From positions 2,080-66,079 of the forward strand of contig CAYMOJ010000006.1 in the NCBI GenBank assembly GCA_964392175.1: a stretch of 64,000 nucleotides of DNA, given 5' to 3'. The notes beneath the pieces were generated by a model. It made no database searches. It saw nothing but the letters and a program-made list of their open reading frames with translations, and was not told the DNA's origin. The stretch comes from an uncultured Ruminococcus sp. (lineage in GTDB: Bacteria > Bacillota > Clostridia > Oscillospirales > Ruminococcaceae). Positions within the stretch are counted from its first letter, which is position 1; each line of letters opens with the position of its first letter. This document shows positions 23,275 through 35,300 of this stretch, one piece after another. The position numbers and the translations under genes are program-made.

Positions 23275-23943
23275 CTATTTTTCCAAACTTGCTAATATTT
23301 TCAAAATCGCAACAGCATCATTGCTATCAACGCCCTGTACATCATCGCAATCCGCATTCAACATACCCTGTGCACTGATTTCGGCTGTATGATCCTCCGA
23401 CAACATACGATTCAGCAAAATCACATCGCCTACCTTAACATAGCCGTCGCAGTTCACATCACCACGCAATGTAGCAACAGGCGCAGTAGTAGCTGTGGTA
23501 ATGCTCGGCTGTGATTTTGCAAGCACTGTATAGCCAATCACGCCGGTTCCCTGCGTATTGTCGCCAAGCTCAATTTGCTCTCCTGCCGCCGCCGATTTTG
23601 CAACCACCGCCATGGTCACATCATTACTAATGGAGAGGGTCACGCCTGTATCCTCCCAATCGCTGAGCCATGCAGGTACACTGCCCAAGCGAGTATCATA
23701 TGCAATATAGAGGGTGATGTCTTCTCCGGCAGTCAAAGTGCCGAGCGTACCTGTTACATTTTTGGAATCGCAGGCGGTCTGAACATACTCTGCACCAAGG
23801 AGCATTTCAGGAACGGCGGTGTAAGTAAAATCGCGGTCGCCGAATACAACACTGCCCACAGCAAGATCCTGTGCGATATTCCAATCAGAGCCATTATCAC
23901 CGTCCGTTACATGAATTTGCGAAATCAACAAGCCATTGATATC
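23275..23943 (-). repeat. Inverted-repeat arm: shared binding-module-like domain plus dockerin coding region (partner 32568-33242)
   Basis: It encodes the same module as the pectinesterase C-terminus. The core 23761-23877 against 32634-32750 shows 6 mismatches in 117 nt by my manual count, in inverted orientation. Confidence 0.8.
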
Positions 23944-25020
23944 CACATCGGTAGAAACTTCCGGCAACAATCCCGCTGCGATAAGATTCTTCGCCCAGGT
24001 GCCATACCATGCATAACCGGCACGCCGTTCCTGACTAAGTTCTGACAGCTGCGAATGAACGGAACTGTCACGGTCTACGAACATCGGCTGGTTGGTATCC
24101 AGATCATAAAATCTTGCCCAGATCGGCCCTGCGCCTTCAACCGCAACTACAATGCGATCATCACCGGTGTTCTGCACCTCAATGCCGTAGATTGCAGAAT
24201 CGGTAAACCATGTCACGGCAGCGTTGATTGCCCGAATGATACGGTTATCGTTGCCTGCTACTTTTTTCAAAAAATCAACGATGCCGACACTCTCGCTGGC
24301 ACTAATAGATGGCAGTTCATAGGCACGAGCCGCAGCCGGTGCAAGGGTAAACTCATCATGCTGCTGACACCATGCGGTTTTGACACCGTTTTGTTCAATC
24401 TGCATATCCAGAATGCACTCCACAGCTTTATCAATTGCGATTGCAGCTTTTGCGGAGCGCACATCATCTATAAAGGAAAAATCACCGGATTTGTTCTCCA
24501 TCTCCCACATGATCTCCATGACATGTACCATTGCACCATCATTAAAGGTGATGTGCGCATGATAGGTACCTGCATCATCGAACACCTGTGGCCAGCCGCC
24601 ATTCTCGTATTGTCCATTCAGCAGCAGATCAATTCCCTTTATACAAGCGTCATAATACTTGCTCTCATTGGTTGCGATATAGGTTCTGGCGAGAATACGG
24701 ATCTGCGAAGTGGTTGCATCGTTATCTATGGTAGATTTTGCCCACGAGCCACTCTGTGTGGTATCATCCATTGCTTTGCGCCATCCGCCATCGGCAAGCT
24801 GATATTGCACAATTGTATCGCAGAGAGAAACCGCTTCACTGCTGCCAAACCAGTCAGCAGATTGTTTCAGGTAGCCCGACCAATCATAGTCAGCGGCATA
24901 TACTACCATGGAATGCTCAGTAGAAAGCATTGAAATGTCTCCCATCCGGCACACAGATGCTGTCAGCATCGTGGCACTGATGAATACAGCCGTGACTGCA
25001 CGCTTTGTGTGATGTTTCAT
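23275..25020 (-). CDS. Secreted pectate lyase (PelA/Pel-15E, PL10-like) with a shared ~130-aa module and C-terminal dockerin
   Basis: Signal peptide MKHHTKRAVTAVFISATMLTASV. LADGGWRK, IDNDATTSQIRILARTY and NGQYENGGWPQVF motifs as I recall them for PL10. C-terminal GDVNCDGYVKVGDVILLNRML...DSNDAVAILKIL dockerin. Confidence 0.72.
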   Translation of the reverse strand: MKHHTKRAVTAVFISATMLTASVCRMGDISMLSTEHSMVVYAADYDWSGYLKQSADWFGSSEAVSLCDTIVQYQLADGGWRKAMDDTTQSGSWAKSTIDNDATTSQIRILARTYIATNESKYYDACIKGIDLLLNGQYENGGWPQVFDDAGTYHAHITFNDGAMVHVMEIMWEMENKSGDFSFIDDVRSAKAAIAIDKAVECILDMQIEQNGVKTAWCQQHDEFTLAPAAARAYELPSISASESVGIVDFLKKVAGNDNRIIRAINAAVTWFTDSAIYGIEVQNTGDDRIVVAVEGAGPIWARFYDLDTNQPMFVDRDSSVHSQLSELSQERRAGYAWYGTWAKNLIAAGLLPEVSTDVDINGLLISQIHVTDGDNGSDWNIAQDLAVGSVVFGDRDFTYTAVPEMLLGAEYVQTACDSKNVTGTLGTLTAGEDITLYIAYDTRLGSVPAWLSDWEDTGVTLSISNDVTMAVVAKSAAAGEQIELGDNTQGTGVIGYTVLAKSQPSITTATTAPVATLRGDVNCDGYVKVGDVILLNRMLSEDHTAEISAQGMLNADCDDVQGVDSNDAVAILKILASLEK

Positions 25021-25226
25021 AAATCCCATCCTTTCAAATCTCTGTCCAGCAATTGCCATTATTAGTATATCAGAGGGATACAGCCCTGTCAATGCAATTT
25101 TGCTCTTTTTTGATGTGCGATTGTATCCAAATATCGTTCAAAAGCAAAAGTCACTGTTGTAAATTGTGATATGCACATTGATGTATCTATACAATTCGCA
25201 CACCTTTTCATTTGCCAAAGCCATAT

Positions 25227-25526
25227 TGCACAAATGTGATTTCTGTTTCTTGTGCATTTCAACGAAATTTAAAAGAATTGTCGTAAAGTCAAAAAAAGCA
25301 TTGACATTAAAGCGAAAATATGATATAAAGTGTATATAGTCATAAAGAGAGTGAGGTGAGTCCAATGGGCTGAATTTCTTATCCCACAGGTGTGGAAAGA
25401 ATGCAGGAATGACATACAATGAACAATATTGGAGGTTTATCATGTTTAAAATCAAGAAGGTTATGGCAGGTATTGTTACAGCGGCTACTGTGGCTCTGGC
25501 ATGGGAAGCTTCAGTGTAAGCGCAGA
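25227..25526 (+). repeat. Direct repeat copy A: promoter + leader + signal-peptide module (partner 28625-28926)
   Basis: Manual alignment: about 9 substitutions and 2 single-base indels over ~300 nt. Starts at TGCACAA and ends at ...AGCGCAGA. Confidence 0.9.
25301..25329 (+). promoter_or_regulatory. Promoter of cassette A
   Basis: TTGACA (25301-25306), 17 nt, TATAAA (25324-25329) with a TG extended -10. An A7 tract lies just upstream of the -35. Confidence 0.6.
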
Positions 25527-25872
25527 CTACAATCGAAGCGAGGCATGGGAAAGCAGGCATGTAAATATCGCAGGTTCTCCAAGCAGTGCAGATTACGACG
25601 CAGTTCGTTCGATTGTGTACTCTACATATGGAGCAATTTGCTACTGCAACGCGGTATCCAACTCTGTCAACGGTGGCACTGGCAAAACAACGATCACCTC
25701 GGTCAATGGTACTATGGCAAGCCAGACTATTATTAATACTGGATCAGTCGTGTGCGAACCAAAAATGGAAGGTGAAATTGAGTGTGCTACATACAAGATG
25801 TCTGCTTCGACAACAACATCTGGTAACATTTTTGTAGCAAGTGGCAATATCGTTACCAAAACTTACAAATAA
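25442..25872 (+). pseudogene. Small secreted 4-Cys protein, cassette A (frameshifted after the signal peptide)
   Basis: ATG 25442 gives MFKIKKVMAGIVTAATVA, then a stop at 25517-25519. Relative to copy B, one G is missing in GCTGCTGG near 25495. The homologous mature part continues in the frame of ORF 25501-25872. Confidence 0.55.
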
Positions 25873-25887
25873 CCTGAGCAATTATAT

Positions 25888-25920
25888 GGCAAAGCTACCG
25901 CTGAACGCGGTGGCTTTGCC
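25888..25920 (+). other. Intercistronic hairpin, cassette A
   Basis: 14-bp stem GGCAAAGCTACCGC / GCGGTGGCTTTGCC (one G-U pair), 5-nt loop, no U-tract. Lies between the small gene and the lipoprotein gene. Confidence 0.6.
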
Positions 25921-25947
25921 AAAATAGAATCATATGGAGGTATGAAA

Positions 25948-27311
25948 ATGAAACGAAAATATCTATTGCTTGTATGTATGCTGTTGCTTTGTGGATGTGC
26001 AGATGGTACCAGTAGTCATGGGGATTCTCAATTAACAAATGTTTCACAGGTCGAAGAAGCATCCAGTACAGCTGACGACAGCTCTGTGCCTTCACAAACA
26101 TACCCTCAACGCGAAGCGATGTCCAATGAGATTGTGTACTACACAAACGATGAAGCCAAAGAAATCATTCAAAACAACACACATTTTGCGGTTGCTGAGA
26201 ATCTTCAAGGTGCCATTCCGAAAAACATTTCTCATTTTAGCAGTTTTACATTGGGATATTATCCAAGGCAGGATAATGCCGGCTTCTACGAAGATTTTCT
26301 CACTATGTTTGATTATTTATTTCCCGATGAGACATTGTATGAAGATTGTCTTTTTTTGCCGGGAAAAATTCCCGTGTCAGCTATGATGAAAATGGCGAAA
26401 TAACCAACACCATTCGGACAGTCGCGGAGGAGTACGACCGCGTCATGCGTGGCGAAGAACACGTACAATATTATTTCTACAGCCCCCATTTTACCGCCGA
26501 ACAATCTTCAGCGGCTGAAAATAATATTTTTATGGAATTCACAAGTCCTGTTTGTAGTGATCTGTCCAATTTCAACAAAGGCGTTCTAGCTGATTATTAT
26601 TACGAATCCCACGGTCAAAAAAATGAAGAATTTCTCGAAACATGGAGTGGCACGTACTTTTATCCCACAGTTTGCACACTGCCACCGGATTCTGAAGAAG
26701 CTTATACACTGCTTGATGGCATCACCATTTCTGTTGCGGATGCAGTCGATTTTTTTGAAAATTATATCAACAATGCACCGATACCGGAAAATCCCACATT
26801 AAGTATCAAGGTGGTTTGGGTTGAGGTGCTGCAATGTGACACTGACAGATACTGCTATTACTTTAAAACCACCAAAGCCCTGGATGGTATCCCCTTTGAC
26901 TGGGATCCAGATACCCCATACCACGGTGGGCTTGATTATAGCTATACACTCAGCTTTGCTTCCATGGCGGTATCGGACGATGTCGACCAAATATATGGTA
27001 TGACAAGAACACAGGTCATCTATGACGAAGTGATGCATACAGAAGGAATCTCCTTTGCAACTGCCATGCAGAAGATGGAAGAGAATCTTTCTTCACTGAT
27101 CGACTTTGAAGTCATAGGCGCAGATTTTGTTTACTCACCCAAAAGATATAAGGGCGAGAGTACTGCTGTTGAAGATGCTTTACACCCTACAACTGCAAGC
27201 TGGAAAGTATCTCTTTATAATCCCAATGACAGTTGGGTTTATGTCTGCTATGTGGATGCGTTGGATGGTGGAAATTTCCACTATTATACATACAGTGTTT
27301 CATCTGATTGA
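25948..27311 (+). pseudogene. Lipoprotein, cassette A (frameshift at a T7 tract)
   Basis: Lipobox LLCGC after MKRKYLLLVCM. The frame breaks at T7 (26351-26357). ORFs 25942-26403 and 26346-27311 both align to the intact paralog 29384-30754 across the break. Confidence 0.6.
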
Positions 27312-27338
27312 AACCTTATTTTACATCTGAACAAAAAA

Positions 27339-27371
27339 ACGGACGCCGTTTTCACGGCGTTCGTTCTTTTT
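27339..27371 (+). terminator. Intrinsic terminator of cassette A
   Basis: 10-bp stem ACGGACGCCG / CGGCGTTCGT followed by TCTTTTT. Confidence 0.75.
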
Positions 27372-27571
27372 GTTGCCTTTTCAGACTTTACGCAGCATCT
27401 TCATCTACTGTTTGATATGCAGTTGCAGCTTGTTCATACAGTGCAAGTGCTTTTACAAGATTTTGTAAGCTATTGTTACAAAAGATGTCAATAGAATTCA
27501 AATTTTTGCACGTTTTCTTCTACGATTCTAACCGTGAAAGAGGCTTCTGCCTAAGACACCTTCAAGACATC

Positions 27572-27600
27572 TTGAAACTTTTTGCAGACTATGGTATGAT
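27572..27600 (+). promoter_or_regulatory. Candidate promoter of the DUF5131 gene
   Basis: TTGAAA (27572-27577), 17 nt, TATGAT (27595-27600). The palindrome TTCAAG-ACAT-CTTGAA (27561-27576) overlaps the -35. Confidence 0.5.
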
Positions 27601-27688
27601 AAGTATAGTATGCTGGTGGATACTACTATAAAGGTATCGATGCAGTAGAATGGAAGCAATCCGTTTGTCTGAATCAAGAGGTGAGATC

Positions 27689-28558
27689 ATGCACGATATA
27701 TGGAATCCGTGGCACGGCTGTAAAAAAATCAGCGAAGGCTGTGATCACTGCTATATGTACTTTCTTGACCGTATGCGCGATAAGGATGGCGCAGAAATTT
27801 ATCGCACGCAAAGCTTTCCATATCCCCTGAAAAAAGACAGAAAAGGCAATTACAAAATCAAAAGCGGTGAAAAGATCCGCGTTTGTATGACTTCTGATTT
27901 CTTTCTGGAAGAGGCAGATCCGTGGCGCGATGAAGCATGGGAGATTATGAAAATCAGAAGTGATGTGATTTTTTACCTGCTTACCAAACGTCCGCAAAGG
28001 GTTTTGAAATGCCTGCCAAAAGATTGGGGCGATGGCTGGGAGAATATCTTTTTCAATGTGACTGCCGAAAATCAGCAGCGTGCCGATGAGCGCATCCCCA
28101 TACTGCTGAATTTGCCTTTTCAGCACAAGGGTATCATGTGTGCACCGTTTATCGGAAAAGTCAGCCTGGATCCATATCTGCAAAGCGGACAGATTGAGCA
28201 AGTGGTCTGTGGTGGCGAAAATTATGACGGCGCAAGGCCCTGTAATTATGACTGGGTAAAGCTCCTTCGTCAAGAATGCGAGCGTTACAATATTTCTTTC
28301 ACATTCATCGAAACAGGAACAAAATTCATCAAGGACAGAAAGCTCTACATTCTTCCGGATAAACGGTTGCAGGCAGAAATGGCATACAAATCCGGTATCA
28401 GTTTTCAAGGAAAACCTGTGAAATATCTGCTGACCGACAATTTGGGAATGGAAATTCCGAAGGAATATCTGCATCAGCCTTATTTTTGTGAACGCTGTAT
28501 GCTGTGTGGCAGCAAACCAATTTGCAATGGCTGCTCACAGTGCGGAAAGTGCAGATAA
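27689..28558 (+). CDS. Phage Gp37/Gp68 family (DUF5131) three-Cys protein with a Cys-rich C-terminal tail
   Basis: WNPWHGCKKISEGCDHCY N-terminus, MTSDFF and LLTKRPQR motifs as I recall them for PF07505. Extra C-terminal FCERCMLCGSKPICNGCSQCGKC. AGAGGTGA RBS. Confidence 0.72.
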   Translation: MHDIWNPWHGCKKISEGCDHCYMYFLDRMRDKDGAEIYRTQSFPYPLKKDRKGNYKIKSGEKIRVCMTSDFFLEEADPWRDEAWEIMKIRSDVIFYLLTKRPQRVLKCLPKDWGDGWENIFFNVTAENQQRADERIPILLNLPFQHKGIMCAPFIGKVSLDPYLQSGQIEQVVCGGENYDGARPCNYDWVKLLRQECERYNISFTFIETGTKFIKDRKLYILPDKRLQAEMAYKSGISFQGKPVKYLLTDNLGMEIPKEYLHQPYFCERCMLCGSKPICNGCSQCGKCR

Positions 28559-28624
28559 AACGTATTGATAATTATAATGTATCTCATTAGAATTGCTGTA
28601 TTTCCATGACTAGATAAGTGAAAC

Positions 28625-28926
28625 TGCACAAATGTGATTTCTGTTTCTTGTGCATTTCAACGAAATTTAAAAAGAATTGTCGTAAAGTCAAAAAAATCAT
28701 TGACATTAAAGCAAAAATGTGATATAAAATGTATATAGTCATAAAGGGAATGAGGTGAGTCCAATGGGCTGAATTTCTTATCCCACAGGTGTAGAAAGAA
28801 TGCAGGAATGACATACAATGAACAATATTGGAGGTTTATCATGTTTAAAATCAAGAAGGTTATGGCAGGTATTGTTGCAGCGGCTACTGTGGCTGCTGGC
28901 ATGGGAAGTTTCAGTGTAAGCGCAGA
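28625..28926 (+). repeat. Direct repeat copy B: promoter + leader + signal-peptide module (partner 25227-25526)
   Basis: See copy A. Offset about 3.4 kb. Confidence 0.9.
28700..28728 (+). promoter_or_regulatory. Promoter of cassette B
   Basis: TTGACA (28700-28705), 17 nt, TATAAA (28723-28728) with a TG extended -10. Confidence 0.6.
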
Positions 28927-29272
28927 ACCAATTGAGTCGCAGGACTGGTACGCAAAGGACGTTAATATATCTGGAGTACCATCCTCCGTGGATACTGTCG
29001 ATACAGTAATCTTAACTGCAAGTGCTTATACTTATGTTGCGGTTTGCACTAATATGACGGTTACAGCGAATCGTAAAACAACCATTTGGTGCTCTACACA
29101 TCAGATGCAAGAAGACGGACAAGATATCTGGAGTTTTGAGATCAACACACCGAATTGCCCTATTGATTGGAGAATCGTGAACAAAGGAACTAAAGTAACA
29201 TATCGTGTAAGCTGCGCAACCACTTCAACGAGCATTTTGGAATCATGGGGAACCATTTCTGTATATTCTTGA
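28841..29272 (+). CDS. Small secreted 4-Cys protein, cassette B (intact)
   Basis: GGAGG is 5 nt upstream of the ATG at 28841. Signal peptide MFKIKKVMAGIVAAATVAAGMGSFSVSA|EP. Mature part about 115 aa with 4 Cys. No family recognised. Confidence 0.65.
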   Translation: MFKIKKVMAGIVAAATVAAGMGSFSVSAEPIESQDWYAKDVNISGVPSSVDTVDTVILTASAYTYVAVCTNMTVTANRKTTIWCSTHQMQEDGQDIWSFEINTPNCPIDWRIVNKGTKVTYRVSCATTSTSILESWGTISVYS

Positions 29273-29279
29273 GTTCGCC

Positions 29280-29310
29280 AAAGGGTCTGTAATCGAGTCG
29301 CAGACCCTTT
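29280..29310 (+). other. Intercistronic hairpin, cassette B
   Basis: 10-bp perfect stem AAAGGGTCTG / CAGACCCTTT, no U-tract. Same position as the cassette A hairpin, but a different sequence. Confidence 0.6.
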
Positions 29311-29383
29311 GACATACTAAAACGCGATAGATTATCGCAACGTTTTATCTTTCCATCAGCACAAAATGAAAAAGGAGCATTTT

Positions 29384-30754
29384 ATGAAGCAAAAACGAAT
29401 TGCATTCATCATCTTGATGACCATGCTGCTCTCCGGATGCCAGTCCAATTCCTCCACGGGCGATTCTCAAATAGGTTCTCAAACAGATACAATGCAATCT
29501 ACGCCCGAATCATCGTTAGATTCTCAATCATCACAGCCGGAAGAGCCTGTGCCCGCCGAGGGACTGGTGCCACTGGATGAATTGACCACGGCTTTGGGCG
29601 ATGCCATACCAGCCAATCTGGATTGCTCGAAATGCGTGGTGCGCATTCCTGAATCTATGGAAGCTTTATATCAGCTGGAATATATTGTACCGGTGTATCA
29701 CGCCGAAAATCAGAATGAATCACTTTCAAAACCGGATTTTCTCACGTTCTACGATCAATTTCAGGAACAAATTGCCTTTTATTTTCCCGATGAAACCTTT
29801 GATGAAAGCCTTGTCCATGTTTCCAGCTATGATGAAGGCTTTATTGGTGTTGATGTAAAAGGAAAACCTGACGCGACATACCCCACATTGCAAAGTACAT
29901 ATGACAAAATGGCAGATGGTACATGGGATTATAATATGCTGGACTACCGTGCCGAAAACCGTGCGTACTTGTGGTGCAATAAGGCAGTTTCTTCTGTTCC
30001 CGTGCGTATGAACCGTGGTGTTACCATACAAACACTGGATGAAGAAGCCATATATGGTGTATTTGAAGTGGCTTACTTACAGGAATACCAAATAGAACAG
30101 ATCGTTGTTCATGATGACATGGAAGATACTGCATATCAATTGAAGAATGGTATGTGCAGCATCAAAGATGCAGTTGCCTTTTTTGAGGGCGCATATTATG
30201 ATTCTATGCCATATCGTTACGAAGATCCCAATGTTCGCTGGAGTGTTGATGAAGTAGGCATCTATCAACTCACAGATGATGTATACGGTTATGGTTTCTT
30301 CAGTCGTGTAACCTATTGCGGCGTACCATTTGATCGCTGTGATCCGGGCAGCTATGGCTCATTCTCCAACGGAAAGGAATATGACGCCACCACTTTTGCG
30401 GCATTTATGGTAGAAACAGATTGCATCGACTTCTGGGCAGGCTGTGAAGGTGATGCACAGTTCACACGTGTTGGCGATGCCATTACCGAGATCCTTCCGC
30501 TTTCACGTGCTGTGGAAATAACAGGGGAAAAACTAACTTCCGCAATCACTTTTGAAGTACAGAAAGCAGAACTGATTTATCAAGGAGAATACACACAATA
30601 TCAAATAGATGCCCCTCAGCGCTATGATACTGCGTATCGTTTTTGCAAACCTGTCTGGAAGCTGACCGCTTATAATCCCAATGATAGCACCGTATATAAT
30701 GTATATGTAGATGCTGTTAGCGGTGAAGTCTGCTATCGAAAGTATTTGGGGTAA
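29384..30754 (+). CDS. Lipoprotein, cassette B (intact), PepSY-like C-terminal motif
   Basis: AAGGAG is 6 nt upstream of the ATG at 29384. Lipobox MLLSGC, S/T/Q/E-rich linker, C-terminal WKLTAYNPNDSTVYNVYVDAVSGEV. Paralog of 25948-27311. Confidence 0.68.
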   Translation: MKQKRIAFIILMTMLLSGCQSNSSTGDSQIGSQTDTMQSTPESSLDSQSSQPEEPVPAEGLVPLDELTTALGDAIPANLDCSKCVVRIPESMEALYQLEYIVPVYHAENQNESLSKPDFLTFYDQFQEQIAFYFPDETFDESLVHVSSYDEGFIGVDVKGKPDATYPTLQSTYDKMADGTWDYNMLDYRAENRAYLWCNKAVSSVPVRMNRGVTIQTLDEEAIYGVFEVAYLQEYQIEQIVVHDDMEDTAYQLKNGMCSIKDAVAFFEGAYYDSMPYRYEDPNVRWSVDEVGIYQLTDDVYGYGFFSRVTYCGVPFDRCDPGSYGSFSNGKEYDATTFAAFMVETDCIDFWAGCEGDAQFTRVGDAITEILPLSRAVEITGEKLTSAITFEVQKAELIYQGEYTQYQIDAPQRYDTAYRFCKPVWKLTAYNPNDSTVYNVYVDAVSGEVCYRKYLG

Positions 30755-30937: not shown

Positions 30938-30967
30938 AAAAAAAGCCACGCAATTGCGTGGCTTTTT
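30938..30967. terminator. Bidirectional terminator (tRNA-Arg on minus; read-through from cassette B on plus)
   Basis: Palindromic stem GCCACGC-AATT-GCGTGGC flanked by A7 (30938-30944) and T5 (30963-30967). Confidence 0.7.
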
Positions 30968-30992
30968 CCATGCGATGAATTTCATCACATGA

Positions 30993-31066
30993 TGCGCCGG
31001 AAGGGATTCGAACCCCCGACCTACTGGTTCGTAGCCAGTCACTCTATCCAACTGAGCTACCGGCGC
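30993..31066 (-). tRNA. tRNA-Arg (anticodon ACG)
   Basis: Manual cloverleaf: GCGCCGG/TA/GCTC-AGTTGGATA-GAGT/G/ACTGG-CTACGAA-CCAGT/AGGTC/GGGGG-TTCGAAT-CCCTT/CCGGCGC/A. 74 nt, CCA not encoded. Confidence 0.9.
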
Positions 31067-31107
31067 ATATCGTCTCGGCTTGAGGATTTCTCCCTCAAGC
31101 CTCAATT

Positions 31108-31382: not shown

Positions 31383-33242
31383 ATGTCGAAATCCAATATT
31401 TTGCAGCGCGGTGTCGCTGCTGCCATCAGTGCGATGCTTTTTTGCATCTCGCTACCGAATTTATCCGCACCTCTTTCAGTGACTGCCGCAAGCACGACCC
31501 TGACCGTTGGCGGTGACGGAACCTACAAAACCGTTACAGAAGCCGTCAATGCTGCGGCTGCTATGAATCCGCAGAGCGAAAGTGATCGCATCACCATCGC
31601 CATTGCGCCCGGCACATACCGCGAACAGGTCATCATCAACACGCCGTATCTTTCCTTCATCAACAGCAATCCCGGCGGCGGTGATGTACTGCTGACATGG
31701 TATTACGGCATCGGCTACCGGTACTACTCCGCAGATGACAACGGCTACTACAATGCCACAAATGCTGCATTCAAATCTACCAAGAACATTGCTGCCCGTT
31801 GGGGTACTGCTGTGCGGATCAACAGCAAGGCAAAATATTTTCGCGCTGAAAATATTATATTTGAAAACAGCTTCAACCGTTATATGACAAGTGAAGAAAT
31901 CGCTGACGGTGTAGAGCCTACAGGCGAAACGCTTACTGTAAACCGCACTTCAGACTTGGATGTGACAGCAAAGTCAAGCACCGAACGTGCGGCTGCTTGC
32001 TGCGTAGAAGCGGATTACGCCGAATTCTATCAATGCGAATTTTTAAGCAGTCAGGATACATTATATACTGCAACACCTGCTTACTTCAAGGAATGCAAGA
32101 TTCAAGGCAACACAGACTACATTTTCGGTTCTGGCGATATTGTATTTGATGAATGCGAGCTTTGTTTTGGTGGATACTCCGATAAAGCGGTTGGCGGCTA
32201 CATCACAGCATCCAGAGAGCAGACCCTCGGCTATCTGTTCTGGAACTGCACCGTTACAGCAAATCCCGATTTAACTGTTGGATCAGGATATTTTGGTCGT
32301 CCATGGCGGGATACCGCGCACGTGCTGTTTTACAACACAAAACTGCAATACGAAAGCATCATTGCCGATGCAGGCTGGCACAGTATGAGTGGCGTTGACC
32401 CATCTCAAGCAACTTTCCGCGAATATCACACGCAAACCATCAGCGGCGATAGCGTGAATACCGGCAGTCGTACCAGTGGCACGGTGCTTTCCTCCTGCGA
32501 CGCCACCAGAGAGCAGTATTTGCAAAGCTGGATACCATACTATTATAACTACACAGCCCCGCCAATCCTGATCAATGGTGCCATGATATCCGAAATCGCC
32601 ATCAATGACAGAGAAAATGGCTACGACTGGCACATCGCACAGGATCTTGCTGTGGGCAGTGCTGTATTTGGAGACCGCGATTTCACTTACACCGCCGTTC
32701 CTGAAATGCTCCTTGGTGCAGAATATGTACAGACCGCCTGCGATTCCAAAACGTTTTCAGGGGAACTGGCTACCTTAACTGTCACGGAAAACACTACCCT
32801 CTATGTTGCATATGATACTCGTCTGGGCAGTGCGCCTGCATGGCTGAACAGCTGGGAAGATACAGGCATGACGCTTTCCACCAGCAATAGCGTGACATTT
32901 GCACTGATGGCAAAATCAGTAACAGCCGGTGAAACCATTTTCCTCGGTGATAACACCACCGGATCCGGCGTCATTGGTTACACGATATTTGCGCAATCCG
33001 AAGTCATTGAAACAACCACTACCACTACCACTACATCGCCCATCGTTGCCACCCTGCTTGGCGATGTCAACTGCGATGGTTTTGTAAAGGTTGGAGATGT
33101 GATTTTACTGAATCGGATGCTCTCTGAAGATCCCACAGTCATGATCTCTGAAATCGGTATGTGCAATGCTGATTTTGATCAGGTCGATGGTGTTACCTCC
33201 AATGACGCAACAGCCATTCTCAAACAGCTTGCCGGCAAGTAA
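31383..33242 (+). CDS. Secreted pectinesterase (CE8) with a shared ~130-aa module, poly-Thr linker and dockerin
   Basis: Signal peptide. GTYREQV, QDTLY, DYIFG and GRPW CE8 motifs. C-terminal module almost identical to that of the pectate lyase. ETTTTTTTTS linker. GDVNCDGFVKVGDVILLNRML...TSNDATAILKQL dockerin. Confidence 0.85.
   Translation: MSKSNILQRGVAAAISAMLFCISLPNLSAPLSVTAASTTLTVGGDGTYKTVTEAVNAAAAMNPQSESDRITIAIAPGTYREQVIINTPYLSFINSNPGGGDVLLTWYYGIGYRYYSADDNGYYNATNAAFKSTKNIAARWGTAVRINSKAKYFRAENIIFENSFNRYMTSEEIADGVEPTGETLTVNRTSDLDVTAKSSTERAAACCVEADYAEFYQCEFLSSQDTLYTATPAYFKECKIQGNTDYIFGSGDIVFDECELCFGGYSDKAVGGYITASREQTLGYLFWNCTVTANPDLTVGSGYFGRPWRDTAHVLFYNTKLQYESIIADAGWHSMSGVDPSQATFREYHTQTISGDSVNTGSRTSGTVLSSCDATREQYLQSWIPYYYNYTAPPILINGAMISEIAINDRENGYDWHIAQDLAVGSAVFGDRDFTYTAVPEMLLGAEYVQTACDSKTFSGELATLTVTENTTLYVAYDTRLGSAPAWLNSWEDTGMTLSTSNSVTFALMAKSVTAGETIFLGDNTTGSGVIGYTIFAQSEVIETTTTTTTTSPIVATLLGDVNCDGFVKVGDVILLNRMLSEDPTVMISEIGMCNADFDQVDGVTSNDATAILKQLAGK
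32568..33242 (+). repeat. Inverted-repeat arm: shared module + dockerin coding region (partner 23275-23943)
   Basis: See the partner arm. The core 32634-32750 is near-identical to the reverse complement of 23761-23877. Confidence 0.8.
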
Positions 33243-34509: not shown

Positions 34510-34620
34510 CTTCAGAGTAGATAGCCATGCGTAAAGTGCCCTCCGGACGGGGAGTTGCCGGAAGGACGAAAAGTGTGAGGCGTCACGCTTGCGGTTTGGC
34601 TGTCGCATCCCGCTGACGCA
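34510..34620 (+). promoter_or_regulatory. THF (tetrahydrofolate) riboswitch aptamer
   Basis: AGAGUAG...GCGUAAAGUG...CCGGACGGGGAGUUGCCGGAAGGACGAAA...GCAUCCCGCUGA matches my recollection of the THF-I consensus. It lies directly upstream of a folT-like ECF S-component gene. Confidence 0.72.
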
Positions 34621-34679: not shown

Positions 34680-35300
34680 ATGAAAAAACTTTCTGATGCG
34701 TTTCGCTGCTCCCTCAAGGAGCTGACCGATTTGCGCTGCATTCTCGTGACAGGTCTACTGGTGGCACTTTCTATGATCATAGAATCTCAAACGATCAACC
34801 TCGGGTTCACCAAGATCAACTTTGCTTTTCTTGCCATTGCCGCCATTGGTATGCTGTATGGCCCGATAGTGGGCTTTGCCGCAGGCGCGATTTGCGATAT
34901 TGTGGGCTATATCGCCTACCCCGACGGTGGCTTTTTGCCGTTGTATGTCCTTATCGGTGCTGCACAAGGTCTACTGTATGGCATGATCGCCTACCACAGA
35001 TTTGCCACACGACCGTTGCATATCACCGTGCGCCAAAAACAGTATGACCTTGCAATCATCGGCAGATTGTTCATCGCGCGCATCCTGGATGTGCTTCTCA
35101 TCAATTTGATCTGCAATACGGCAGCCAACTATCACTACGGATTCCTTGCTTCGGAATCCTCATTGATCGTCGCCATTTACGGACGCATCGCCAAAAATAT
35201 CATTGAATTACCTGTGGATCTGCTGCTGATGGCTTTGATTTTACCGGCTGTGCTGAAGGCATACAGCATTGTGTTTCTCAAAAGAAGAGGCACCGCCTGA
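34680..35300 (+). CDS. folT: Folate-family ECF transporter S component
   Basis: 206 aa, about 6 TM. FAFLAIAAIGMLYGPIVGFAAGAICDIVGY region typical of ECF S components. THF riboswitch upstream. Confidence 0.75.
   Translation: MKKLSDAFRCSLKELTDLRCILVTGLLVALSMIIESQTINLGFTKINFAFLAIAAIGMLYGPIVGFAAGAICDIVGYIAYPDGGFLPLYVLIGAAQGLLYGMIAYHRFATRPLHITVRQKQYDLAIIGRLFIARILDVLLINLICNTAANYHYGFLASESSLIVAIYGRIAKNIIELPVDLLLMALILPAVLKAYSIVFLKRRGTA

Follow-up and report, generated by a model that had tools for sequence, protein, structure and literature searches.

Described systems and the S-L cassettes

In Enterococcus faecalis, the fsrABDC locus adjoins its secreted-protein target genes, gelE-sprE. The bacteriocin lactococcin 972 (Lcn972) is Sec-dependent, and in its operon a dedicated ATP-binding cassette (ABC) immunity transporter follows the bacteriocin gene. 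The bacteriocin binds lipid II, undergoes no modification and contains no Cys (PMC8538875). The LanI lipoprotein together with LanFEG represents an established self-immunity design, of which some producers carry one of the two parts (PMC4828448). We compared these designs with two gene cassettes, or modules, in a 64,000-nucleotide stretch of DNA from an uncultured Ruminococcus sp. (contig CAYMOJ010000006.1), referred to here as the window. Each module holds S, a small secreted-protein gene (~140 amino acids, aa), and L, a partner lipoprotein gene (~456 aa), numbered S1 and L1 or S2 and L2 by module. The original prediction had offered three ideas for such a pair: an effector with its immunity protein, an effector with its receptor, or a surface-variation system. 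Genomic context was found to support the first of these best, in that S may be a bacteriocin-like secreted protein, with L (plus the ABC genes, in relatives) providing immunity. This reading is still unproven, and our confidence in it falls a little short of even.

Loci in species-representative genomes and metagenomes were found by permease alignment, the broad alignments of S and L being too divergent for locus finding, and the counts of metagenomic and genome loci were not de-replicated. The operon common in these relatives runs S, L (one to three copies), permease 1 (~300 aa), permease 2 (~289 aa) and ATPase (210 aa), with about six transmembrane segments in each permease. The best family for the ATPase was TIGR03740, the lantibiotic protection ATPase (4e-53, 180 bits against a cut-off of 309.75), followed by DrrA and the phenol-soluble modulin exporter PmtC. 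Neither permease matched a family in Pfam/NCBIfam, PADLOC, PHROGs or PDB sequences. A metagenome scan returned 185 relatives of one permease, many of them in human-gut assemblies.

This arrangement resembles LanI/LanFEG (NisI/NisFEG, SpaI/SpaFEG) in that a surface lipoprotein gene lies beside the gene for a secreted product, and two different permeases of six transmembrane segments accompany one ATPase of nearest lantibiotic-protection type. As in the Lan systems, some S-L-family loci hold the lipoprotein only or the pump only, and regulation appears to depend on cell density. The differences are equally clear in the product and in the pump. S has a Sec-type signal peptide and an unmodified mature domain of 115 aa, rather than being a small Lan-modified leader peptide; the permeases match no MutE/MutG-type family, and with the ATPase below the TIGR03740 cut-off the pump does not qualify as LanF/E/G-type; and the gene order in relatives is permease-permease-ATPase. 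No Lan modification-enzyme Pfam family or LanT-type export gene was seen among the genes tabulated for related loci, in which no systematic search for them was made. We therefore read the likeness as an analogy of design, not as homology.

Lcn972 is approached from another side, since S is the first gene, is unmodified, carries a signal peptide and is predicted to be beta-rich, and is followed by ABC genes in relatives. The ATPase matches the Lcn972-group family TIGR03608 at 1e-29, far below its cut-off. However, S is about twice as large, and Lcn972 systems are not known to have a lipoprotein partner. None of 47 S-family members matched Lactococcin_972 (Pfam) at E <= 0.1, and a PDB profile search returned no bacteriocin chain. 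From polymorphic toxin/immunity cassettes, in which an effector with a conserved N-terminal trafficking region and a variable C-terminal toxin has a small cytoplasmic immunity protein beside it, the pair differs in having no known domain in S and, as the partner, an extracellular lipoprotein of 450 aa.

The likeness to agr/fsr loci lies in position. The genes agrA-agrC-agrD-agrB were observed directly upstream of the operon in L005-L010, L020 and several human-gut loci, with S-L directly after agrB and downstream of a LytTR-box promoter. L005-L010 carry an AgrD-like open reading frame (ORF) of 47 aa (...TANSACIFYTHQEQLPE...; 5752-5998 in L005), and upstream of agrD a perfect LytTR-type direct repeat, ACGTTCACA-N12-ACGTTCACA. 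Two 9-bp direct repeats 12 bp apart form the known AgrA/LytTR site layout. Given this placement, S would be made there in a cell-density-dependent positive-feedback operon. The complete set of AgrB, AgrD, AgrC-like kinase, LytTR regulator and repeat was found in L005-L010 and several metagenomic loci and is missing from the window, whose cassettes have their own sigma-A-type promoter and a different upstream inverted repeat; S and L are also unrelated to gelE/sprE. In two further loci (L022/L023), a divergent PadR gene lies upstream of the operon. Control of the window cassettes by agr was considered and rejected, on the lack of any agr or PadR homologue or LytTR box in the window. Similarity between the window and the pump-bearing locus L016 ends 30 nt past the L2 stop codon, and the window cassettes are reduced forms without pump or agr genes.

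S and L are paired, co-diverge and are under purifying selection

Wherever the sequence downstream of S was long enough, an L-family gene came directly after it. This held for each of 13 distinct S types inspected individually, down to E ~1e-5 from the profile, and for 33/33 metagenomic loci with intact S. The fixed pairing of a secreted S with a surface lipoprotein L was thus upheld, and its presence in other genomes, which had been set beforehand as the test of chance adjacency, was confirmed. Across 11 pairs, the distance matrices of S and L correlate closely (r=0.96, Mantel p ~2e-4). The cassettes are thus inherited as units; co-divergence of this kind is expected for interacting partners, and linkage alone would also give it. 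Both genes are under purifying selection (dN/dS, the ratio of nonsynonymous to synonymous substitution rates, 0.15-0.24).

Co-divergence would also fit S as a secreted protein signal and L as its surface receptor, serving kin or strain recognition with specificity set by cassette diversity. Several cassettes are possible per genome (as in the window and in L034), and there is the link to quorum-sensing loci. We nevertheless judge this very unlikely. L is not accompanied by a transducer such as a kinase or anti-sigma factor, the neighbouring histidine kinases are parts of agr sets with their own AgrD peptide, and the conserved ABC exporter would be left without a role.

Intercistronic hairpins without a U-tract had been predicted for both modules and were found in both (Table 1). 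In 13/14 related loci the spacer between S and L holds a strong hairpin, and the stem sequences are unrelated. Conservation of position without conservation of stem sequence points to selection for structure, and most simply the hairpin would be an attenuator or messenger RNA stabiliser that keeps S more abundant than L.

Exhaustive profile searching across 1.84 billion representative proteins identified 66 S-family clusters, all with a signal peptide and, a few fragments excepted, 120-160 aa in length. The mature part opens with the motif W-x3-(H/R)-V-N-x-P-G-A-P-S-S, and G-x-I is conserved near the C-terminus. S is rich in S/T/N/G; the mature part of S2 has an isoelectric point of ~4.5 and is predicted to be all-beta. 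In the S1-S2 comparison, the signal peptide was the only shared part. The small protein had been described as a Sec-type protein of ~140 aa with four Cys, which holds for S2 in length (143 aa) and signal peptide and for S1 and S2 in Cys number. This Cys number is not a family trait, since mature counts range from 0 to 5, and we regard it as incidental; a five-sequence S alignment has one invariant Cys column.

S matched nothing in Pfam, NCBIfam, PADLOC, PHROGs or PDB sequences, and for L there was no Pfam or NCBIfam family, no PADLOC or PHROGs match (L2) and no PDB sequence match (L profile). In cluster look-ups, members of both families were named only 'hypothetical protein' and came from Oscillospiraceae metagenome-assembled genomes (MAGs), and literature searches returned no description of the S-L family. 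The earlier statement that neither partner belongs to a nameable family therefore agrees with the profile searches, which match neither to a characterised one. Small signal-peptide proteins that fall outside the S profile were also seen near ABC/L genes (L027 4704-5147, L038 1049-1453, L042 3667-4146), and these may be alternative secreted partners.

The lipoprotein of ~455 aa with an LLSGC or LLCGC lipobox was recovered as described, intact at 456 aa in L2 and of the same length in L1 after repair. A regular-expression search found lipoboxes of the L-[ST]-[GA]-C type in 10/12 L proteins, of which the L005b match, at residue 7, is questionable. The AlphaFold model of L2 has a mean predicted local distance difference test score (pLDDT) of 52 and is usable over residues ~230-456, where it forms two helix-plus-antiparallel-sheet modules; the N-terminal ~170 residues after the linker gave no model and no match. 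No Foldseek match to the L2 model reached E <= 0.001. The best were PepSY-type proteins, namely the C. difficile CD1622 lipoprotein (4exr) and the C-terminal tandem PepSY of YpeB (5boi), and these are non-significant at E 0.02-0.03 and template-modelling scores of 0.15-0.36. The PepSY likeness that had been proposed for the C-terminus of L is weak: L2 scores 17 bits against the PF03413 threshold of 24 (E 0.007) over residues 422-449, a stretch of 28 near its C-terminal end, and no PepSY match in Pfam was found for L1 or, at E <= 0.1, for four other L proteins. Structure prediction with Foldseek, as suggested at the outset, thus gave a partly confident model with non-significant best matches for L2 and an unusable model for S.

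The two modules had been presented as a tandem duplication. S1 and S2, and L1 and L2, are indeed homologous, but a recent duplication does not fit, with an identity of 26% between the mature S proteins and of 27% between the L proteins. Each window copy has closer counterparts in the cassettes of other genomes, at 36-39% identity in S and 32-34% in L. Only a region of ~300 nt, spanning the upstream repeat, promoter, 5' untranslated region (5'UTR) and signal peptide, is near-identical between the modules, at 95.7%, with sharp borders, of which the downstream one coincides with the signal-peptidase site. Over this block, module 1 and its own orthologue in a related species share only 84% identity, which argues for gene conversion rather than recent duplication. 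On this sequence comparison the modules are ancient paralogues whose 5' block was homogenised by conversion within the genome.

The window arrangement is mirrored by an independent tandem S-L-S-L in a rabbit-gut Clostridia MAG (L034 4977-8990), where it lies immediately upstream of permease genes; there, the synonymous distance (dS) is 0 over codons 1-23 of S and codons 1-40 of L, with diverged cores. A conserved 5'UTR block of ~50 nt (GAGGTGAGTCCAATGGG...CCCACAGGTGTGGAAAGAATG) was seen in both cassette types, at 25350-25400 and 28749-28799 (+), and is kept in other species even where the promoter lies 150 nt further upstream (L001, L016). A riboswitch or structured leader was rejected for this region, since there was no Rfam match with the cut-off relaxed to E <= 10, and the module 2 copy gave a fold z-score of -0.02.

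A homogenised 5' end with variable cores also resembles antigenic-variation loci, as would suit S being an abundant structural or matrix subunit outside the cell (fibre, coat or adhesin), with L as its membrane-tethered anchor or assembly factor and their diversity as a form of surface variation. The predicted all-beta fold and S/T/N/G-rich composition of S agree with this, and the hairpin after S implies an excess of S over L, as for major subunits. Systems of the agr type also control surface and biofilm proteins. We hold this explanation to be unlikely, given that no sortase signal, cell-wall anchor or pilin motif could be read from the S sequences, and an ABC-2 exporter of antibiotic-protection type is an odd partner for a surface structure. 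If L served only to anchor S, it would be hard to see why S is so often lost where one to three copies of L remain.

Module 1 is not intact as had been described, as it carries two 1-nt deletions, one in the S1 signal peptide and one in the T7 run of L1. The first lies between 25495 and 25496 (GTGGCT-CTGG against GTGGCTGCTGG) and leads to a stop after 25 codons. At the T7 run (26351-26357), L1 is split into 25942-26403 and 26346-27311, and one added T restores 456 aa. Intact orthologues exist on the syntenic contigs L011-L015 of a related species, which are 89% identical at the DNA level: for S1, P0010 (143 aa, 91% identical; L011-L015), and for L1, a protein of 458 aa (88% identical; L011). 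Compared with these orthologues, the broken genes still show dN/dS of 0.24 (S1) and 0.15 (L1), which suggests that the lesions are recent or, less likely, errors. Sequencing error is an unlikely cause, since the window has unbroken ORFs of 1453, 1190, 876 and 801 aa elsewhere, yet both lesions fall in a single cassette, within ~900 nt. Module 2 is undamaged and has a promoter, a ribosome-binding site (RBS) and a terminator.

These frameshifts could mean that the adjacency is fortuitous or that the DNA is dead, without current function in this genome. The pump and regulators of relatives are absent from the window, and the region is AT-richer than its flanks and adjoins a tRNA gene. Such an explanation is highly improbable, however, in view of the intact module 2 with its expression signals, of orthologues under purifying selection and of a pairing that is universal in the family.

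L was present in 50/51 metagenomic ABC loci with at least 3.3 kb of upstream sequence (33 with S and L, 2 with S fragments, 15 with L only). Among 10 loci from species-representative genomes, a clear L was observed in seven, and an eighth, L033, was marginal at E ~8e-4; S was intact in one (the L034 tandem pair), a 48-aa remnant in one, and missing beside L in 5. L2 peptides had no match in the species-representative genomes. Several loci carry L-L or L-L-L arrays. Among related loci, S decays more often than L: an internal deletion and ATT in place of the ATG start were found in L001-4, a start codon changed from ATG to ATA in L016-19, and a fused N- and C-terminal remnant of 48 aa in L026. 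In L001-L004, a decayed AgrD-like peptide gene lies beside the deleted S gene. Remnants of L and ABC genes occur too (L001, L027, L037), so turnover is general.

With L and the ABC genes as the most constant part of these loci, and L without S in 15/51, the two might instead guard the envelope against an exogenous membrane- or wall-active antimicrobial from competitors or the host, with S as an accessory (decoy, scavenger or co-sensor). The lantibiotic-protection, DrrA and PmtC types to which the ATPase is closest are compatible with this role, as are the PadR-type regulators that adjoin some loci. Resistance operons that mirror LanI/LanFEG also exist in non-producers (PMC4828448). We find this account doubtful, because it leaves four features unexplained: S as the first and presumably most expressed gene, the cassette-by-cassette co-divergence of S and L, the stand-alone S-L pairs without a pump (the window and L011), and the coupling to cell-density signalling.

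S as a possible bacteriocin with L as its immunity protein

A bacteriocin-like S with an immunity protein L is favoured by what is seen in relatives: a lantibiotic-protection-like ABC exporter in the operon, agr control, L-only arrays and the repeated decay of S beside a retained L. A secreted product that is presumably highly expressed, with an adjacent lipoprotein that tracks it in sequence, also fits the logic of a bacteriocin locus. Building on the anatomy, pairing, co-divergence, purifying selection and operon context observed above, the following mechanism can be proposed. S would be transcribed from a strong promoter, exported through Sec and released, and the stable hairpin behind it would lower or buffer the expression of L. 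Anchored on the outside of the membrane through its long flexible linker, L would be the cognate immunity protein, binding S at the producer surface in a LanI-like role. The ABC pump, where present, would add protection much as LanFEG does. In relatives, an agr quorum-sensing locus would often drive the operon, or a PadR regulator gene adjoins it. S itself would be an antagonistic protein, its toxicity being inferred. Between cassettes, the shared block of promoter, 5'UTR and signal peptide would be kept alike by gene conversion.

Several observations weigh against this proposal. No toxin, enzyme or bacteriocin domain was detectable in S, the net charge of mature S ranges from -10 to +8 and is not consistently cationic, and the AlphaFold2 model of S, built from a 5-sequence alignment, is unusable at pLDDT 39. 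At ~450 aa, L is large for an immunity protein, and it showed no NisI/SpaI homology in Pfam, NCBIfam, PDB sequences or the best 50 Foldseek PDB matches of its partly confident model. Overall positive selection was not seen (dN/dS 0.15-0.37, with no segment clearly >1). Homologues of the permeases, the ATPase, agr and PadR are absent from the 64-kb window, as is a LytTR box, and module 1 has both S and L broken, not S alone.

Carried further, and held more tentatively, the proposal would make S a new class of Sec-exported, unmodified, all-beta bacteriocins of ~12 kDa in uncultured gut and rumen Oscillospiraceae, human-gut species included. L would then be a new lipoprotein immunity family beside a new ABC permease pair under agr control, the S-L specificity cassettes would be exchanged or homogenised through the conserved 5' block, and L-only arrays would represent acquired resistance. 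S, L and the two permeases are four unnamed protein families in a common operon tied to quorum sensing. Fibre-degrading gut and rumen communities are difficult to grow in culture, and little is known of the bacteriocins that they make. If S is antagonistic, the operon would be a previously unseen system of interference competition in fibre-degrading rumen and gut Clostridia, with cognate and non-cognate pairs ready for specificity comparison. If S is no toxin, the conserved S-L-ABC unit would still be a new cell-envelope system worth a name.

Layout of the region and its surroundings

Two S-L modules of the same layout are present on the + strand, as predicted, between a dockerin-bearing pectate-lyase-like gene on the left flank (23275-25092, -) and tRNA-Arg (30991-31067, -). 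Each runs in the order inverted repeat (GCACAA-N16-TTGTGC), promoter, leader, S, hairpin and L (Table 1). The sigma-A-type promoters and ~105-nt leaders described earlier could both be read directly from the sequence; our promoter scan, whose rule was a T at position 6 of the -10 hexamer, omitted that of module 1. The modules are not adjacent as had been stated, since a terminator and a DUF5131 gene lie between them.

Table 1. Positions of the features of the S-L region in the window
Feature	Positions	Strand	Remarks
Module 1 upstream inverted repeat GCACAA-N16-TTGTGC	25228..25255	+	Opens 96%-identical block; candidate operator; kept in orthologous locus L011
Module 1 promoter TTGACA-17-TATAAA, TG upstream of -10	25301..25329	+	Direct reading of sequence
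Module 1 5'UTR, ~105 nt, RBS GGAGG, conserved block ~25350-25400	25336..25441	+	Conserved across species
S1, frameshifted small secreted-protein gene; mature part in frame from 25501	25442..25872	+	
Module 1 intercistronic hairpin, 15-bp stem, no U-tract	25887..25921	+	-29.4 kcal/mol, z -5.2
L1, frameshifted lipoprotein gene, lipobox LLCGC; repaired product 456 aa	25942..27311	+	
Intrinsic terminator closing module 1	27338..27365	+	z -5.8
DUF5131 gene between modules	27650..28558	+	PF07505, 5e-40
Module 2 upstream inverted repeat, copy of 25228-25255	28626..28653	+	
Module 2 promoter TTGACA-17-TATAAA	28700..28728	+	Within 95.7%-identical block
S2, intact, 143 aa, signal peptide ...SFSVSA|EP, mature part 115 aa	28841..29272	+	
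Module 2 intercistronic hairpin, 12-bp stem	29279..29311	+	z -4.5 for spacer
Small second hairpin after module 2 intercistronic hairpin	29324..29338	+	
L2, intact, 456-aa lipoprotein, lipobox LLSGC, S/T/Q/E/P-rich linker	29384..30754	+	
Hairpin GCCACGC-AATT-GCGTGGC between A and T runs	30945..30967	.	Direct reading of sequence

The DUF5131 gene has a Cys-rich C-terminal tail and matches PADLOC PDC-M30B/M41B (5e-31) and phrog_2045; it was the sole match when PADLOC anti-phage and PHROGs models were searched with it, S2, L2 and both permeases. No partner 'A' gene is obvious beside it. A screen of 24 related loci (within L001-L034) did not find the gene, and it looks like an insertion unrelated to the S-L system.

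The G+C content is 41-44% over 24-31 kb and ~49% in the flanks. The right edge of this lower-GC stretch is formed by tRNA-Arg(ACG) on the - strand with a terminator hairpin (30945-31067), the latter probably a bidirectional terminator common to module 2 and the tRNA gene. A low-GC stretch ending at a tRNA gene would fit an acquired islet. Some of the related loci lie beside genes for a relaxase, integrase or recombinase. Plasmid or phage carriage was rejected, as there was no plasmid match and the two 'phage' matches were unverified faecal contigs with housekeeping genes. Labelled 'UNVERIFIED Bacteriophage sp.', these contigs (L041, L042; GenBank MT835572, MT835787) carry pgk, tpiA and NAPRTase-like ORFs around L-perm1-perm2-ATPase and are probably bacterial DNA rather than phage.

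The pectin-degrading enzymes that flank the region, at 23275-25092 (-) and 31383-33242 (+), are both dockerin-ended. They have in common a C-terminal module of ~200 aa (...DWxIAQDLAVGSxVFGDRDFTYTAVPEMLLGAEYVQTACDSK...), so that paralogous modules bracket the S-L region. The link to a cellulosome drawn in the original prediction was not supported, as it is only in the closely related L011-L015 that the pectinolytic dockerin enzymes are kept as neighbours. Further downstream, a tetrahydrofolate (THF) riboswitch (Rfam RF01831, 82 bits) was identified at 34511-34617 (+), upstream of the ORF at 34680-35300.

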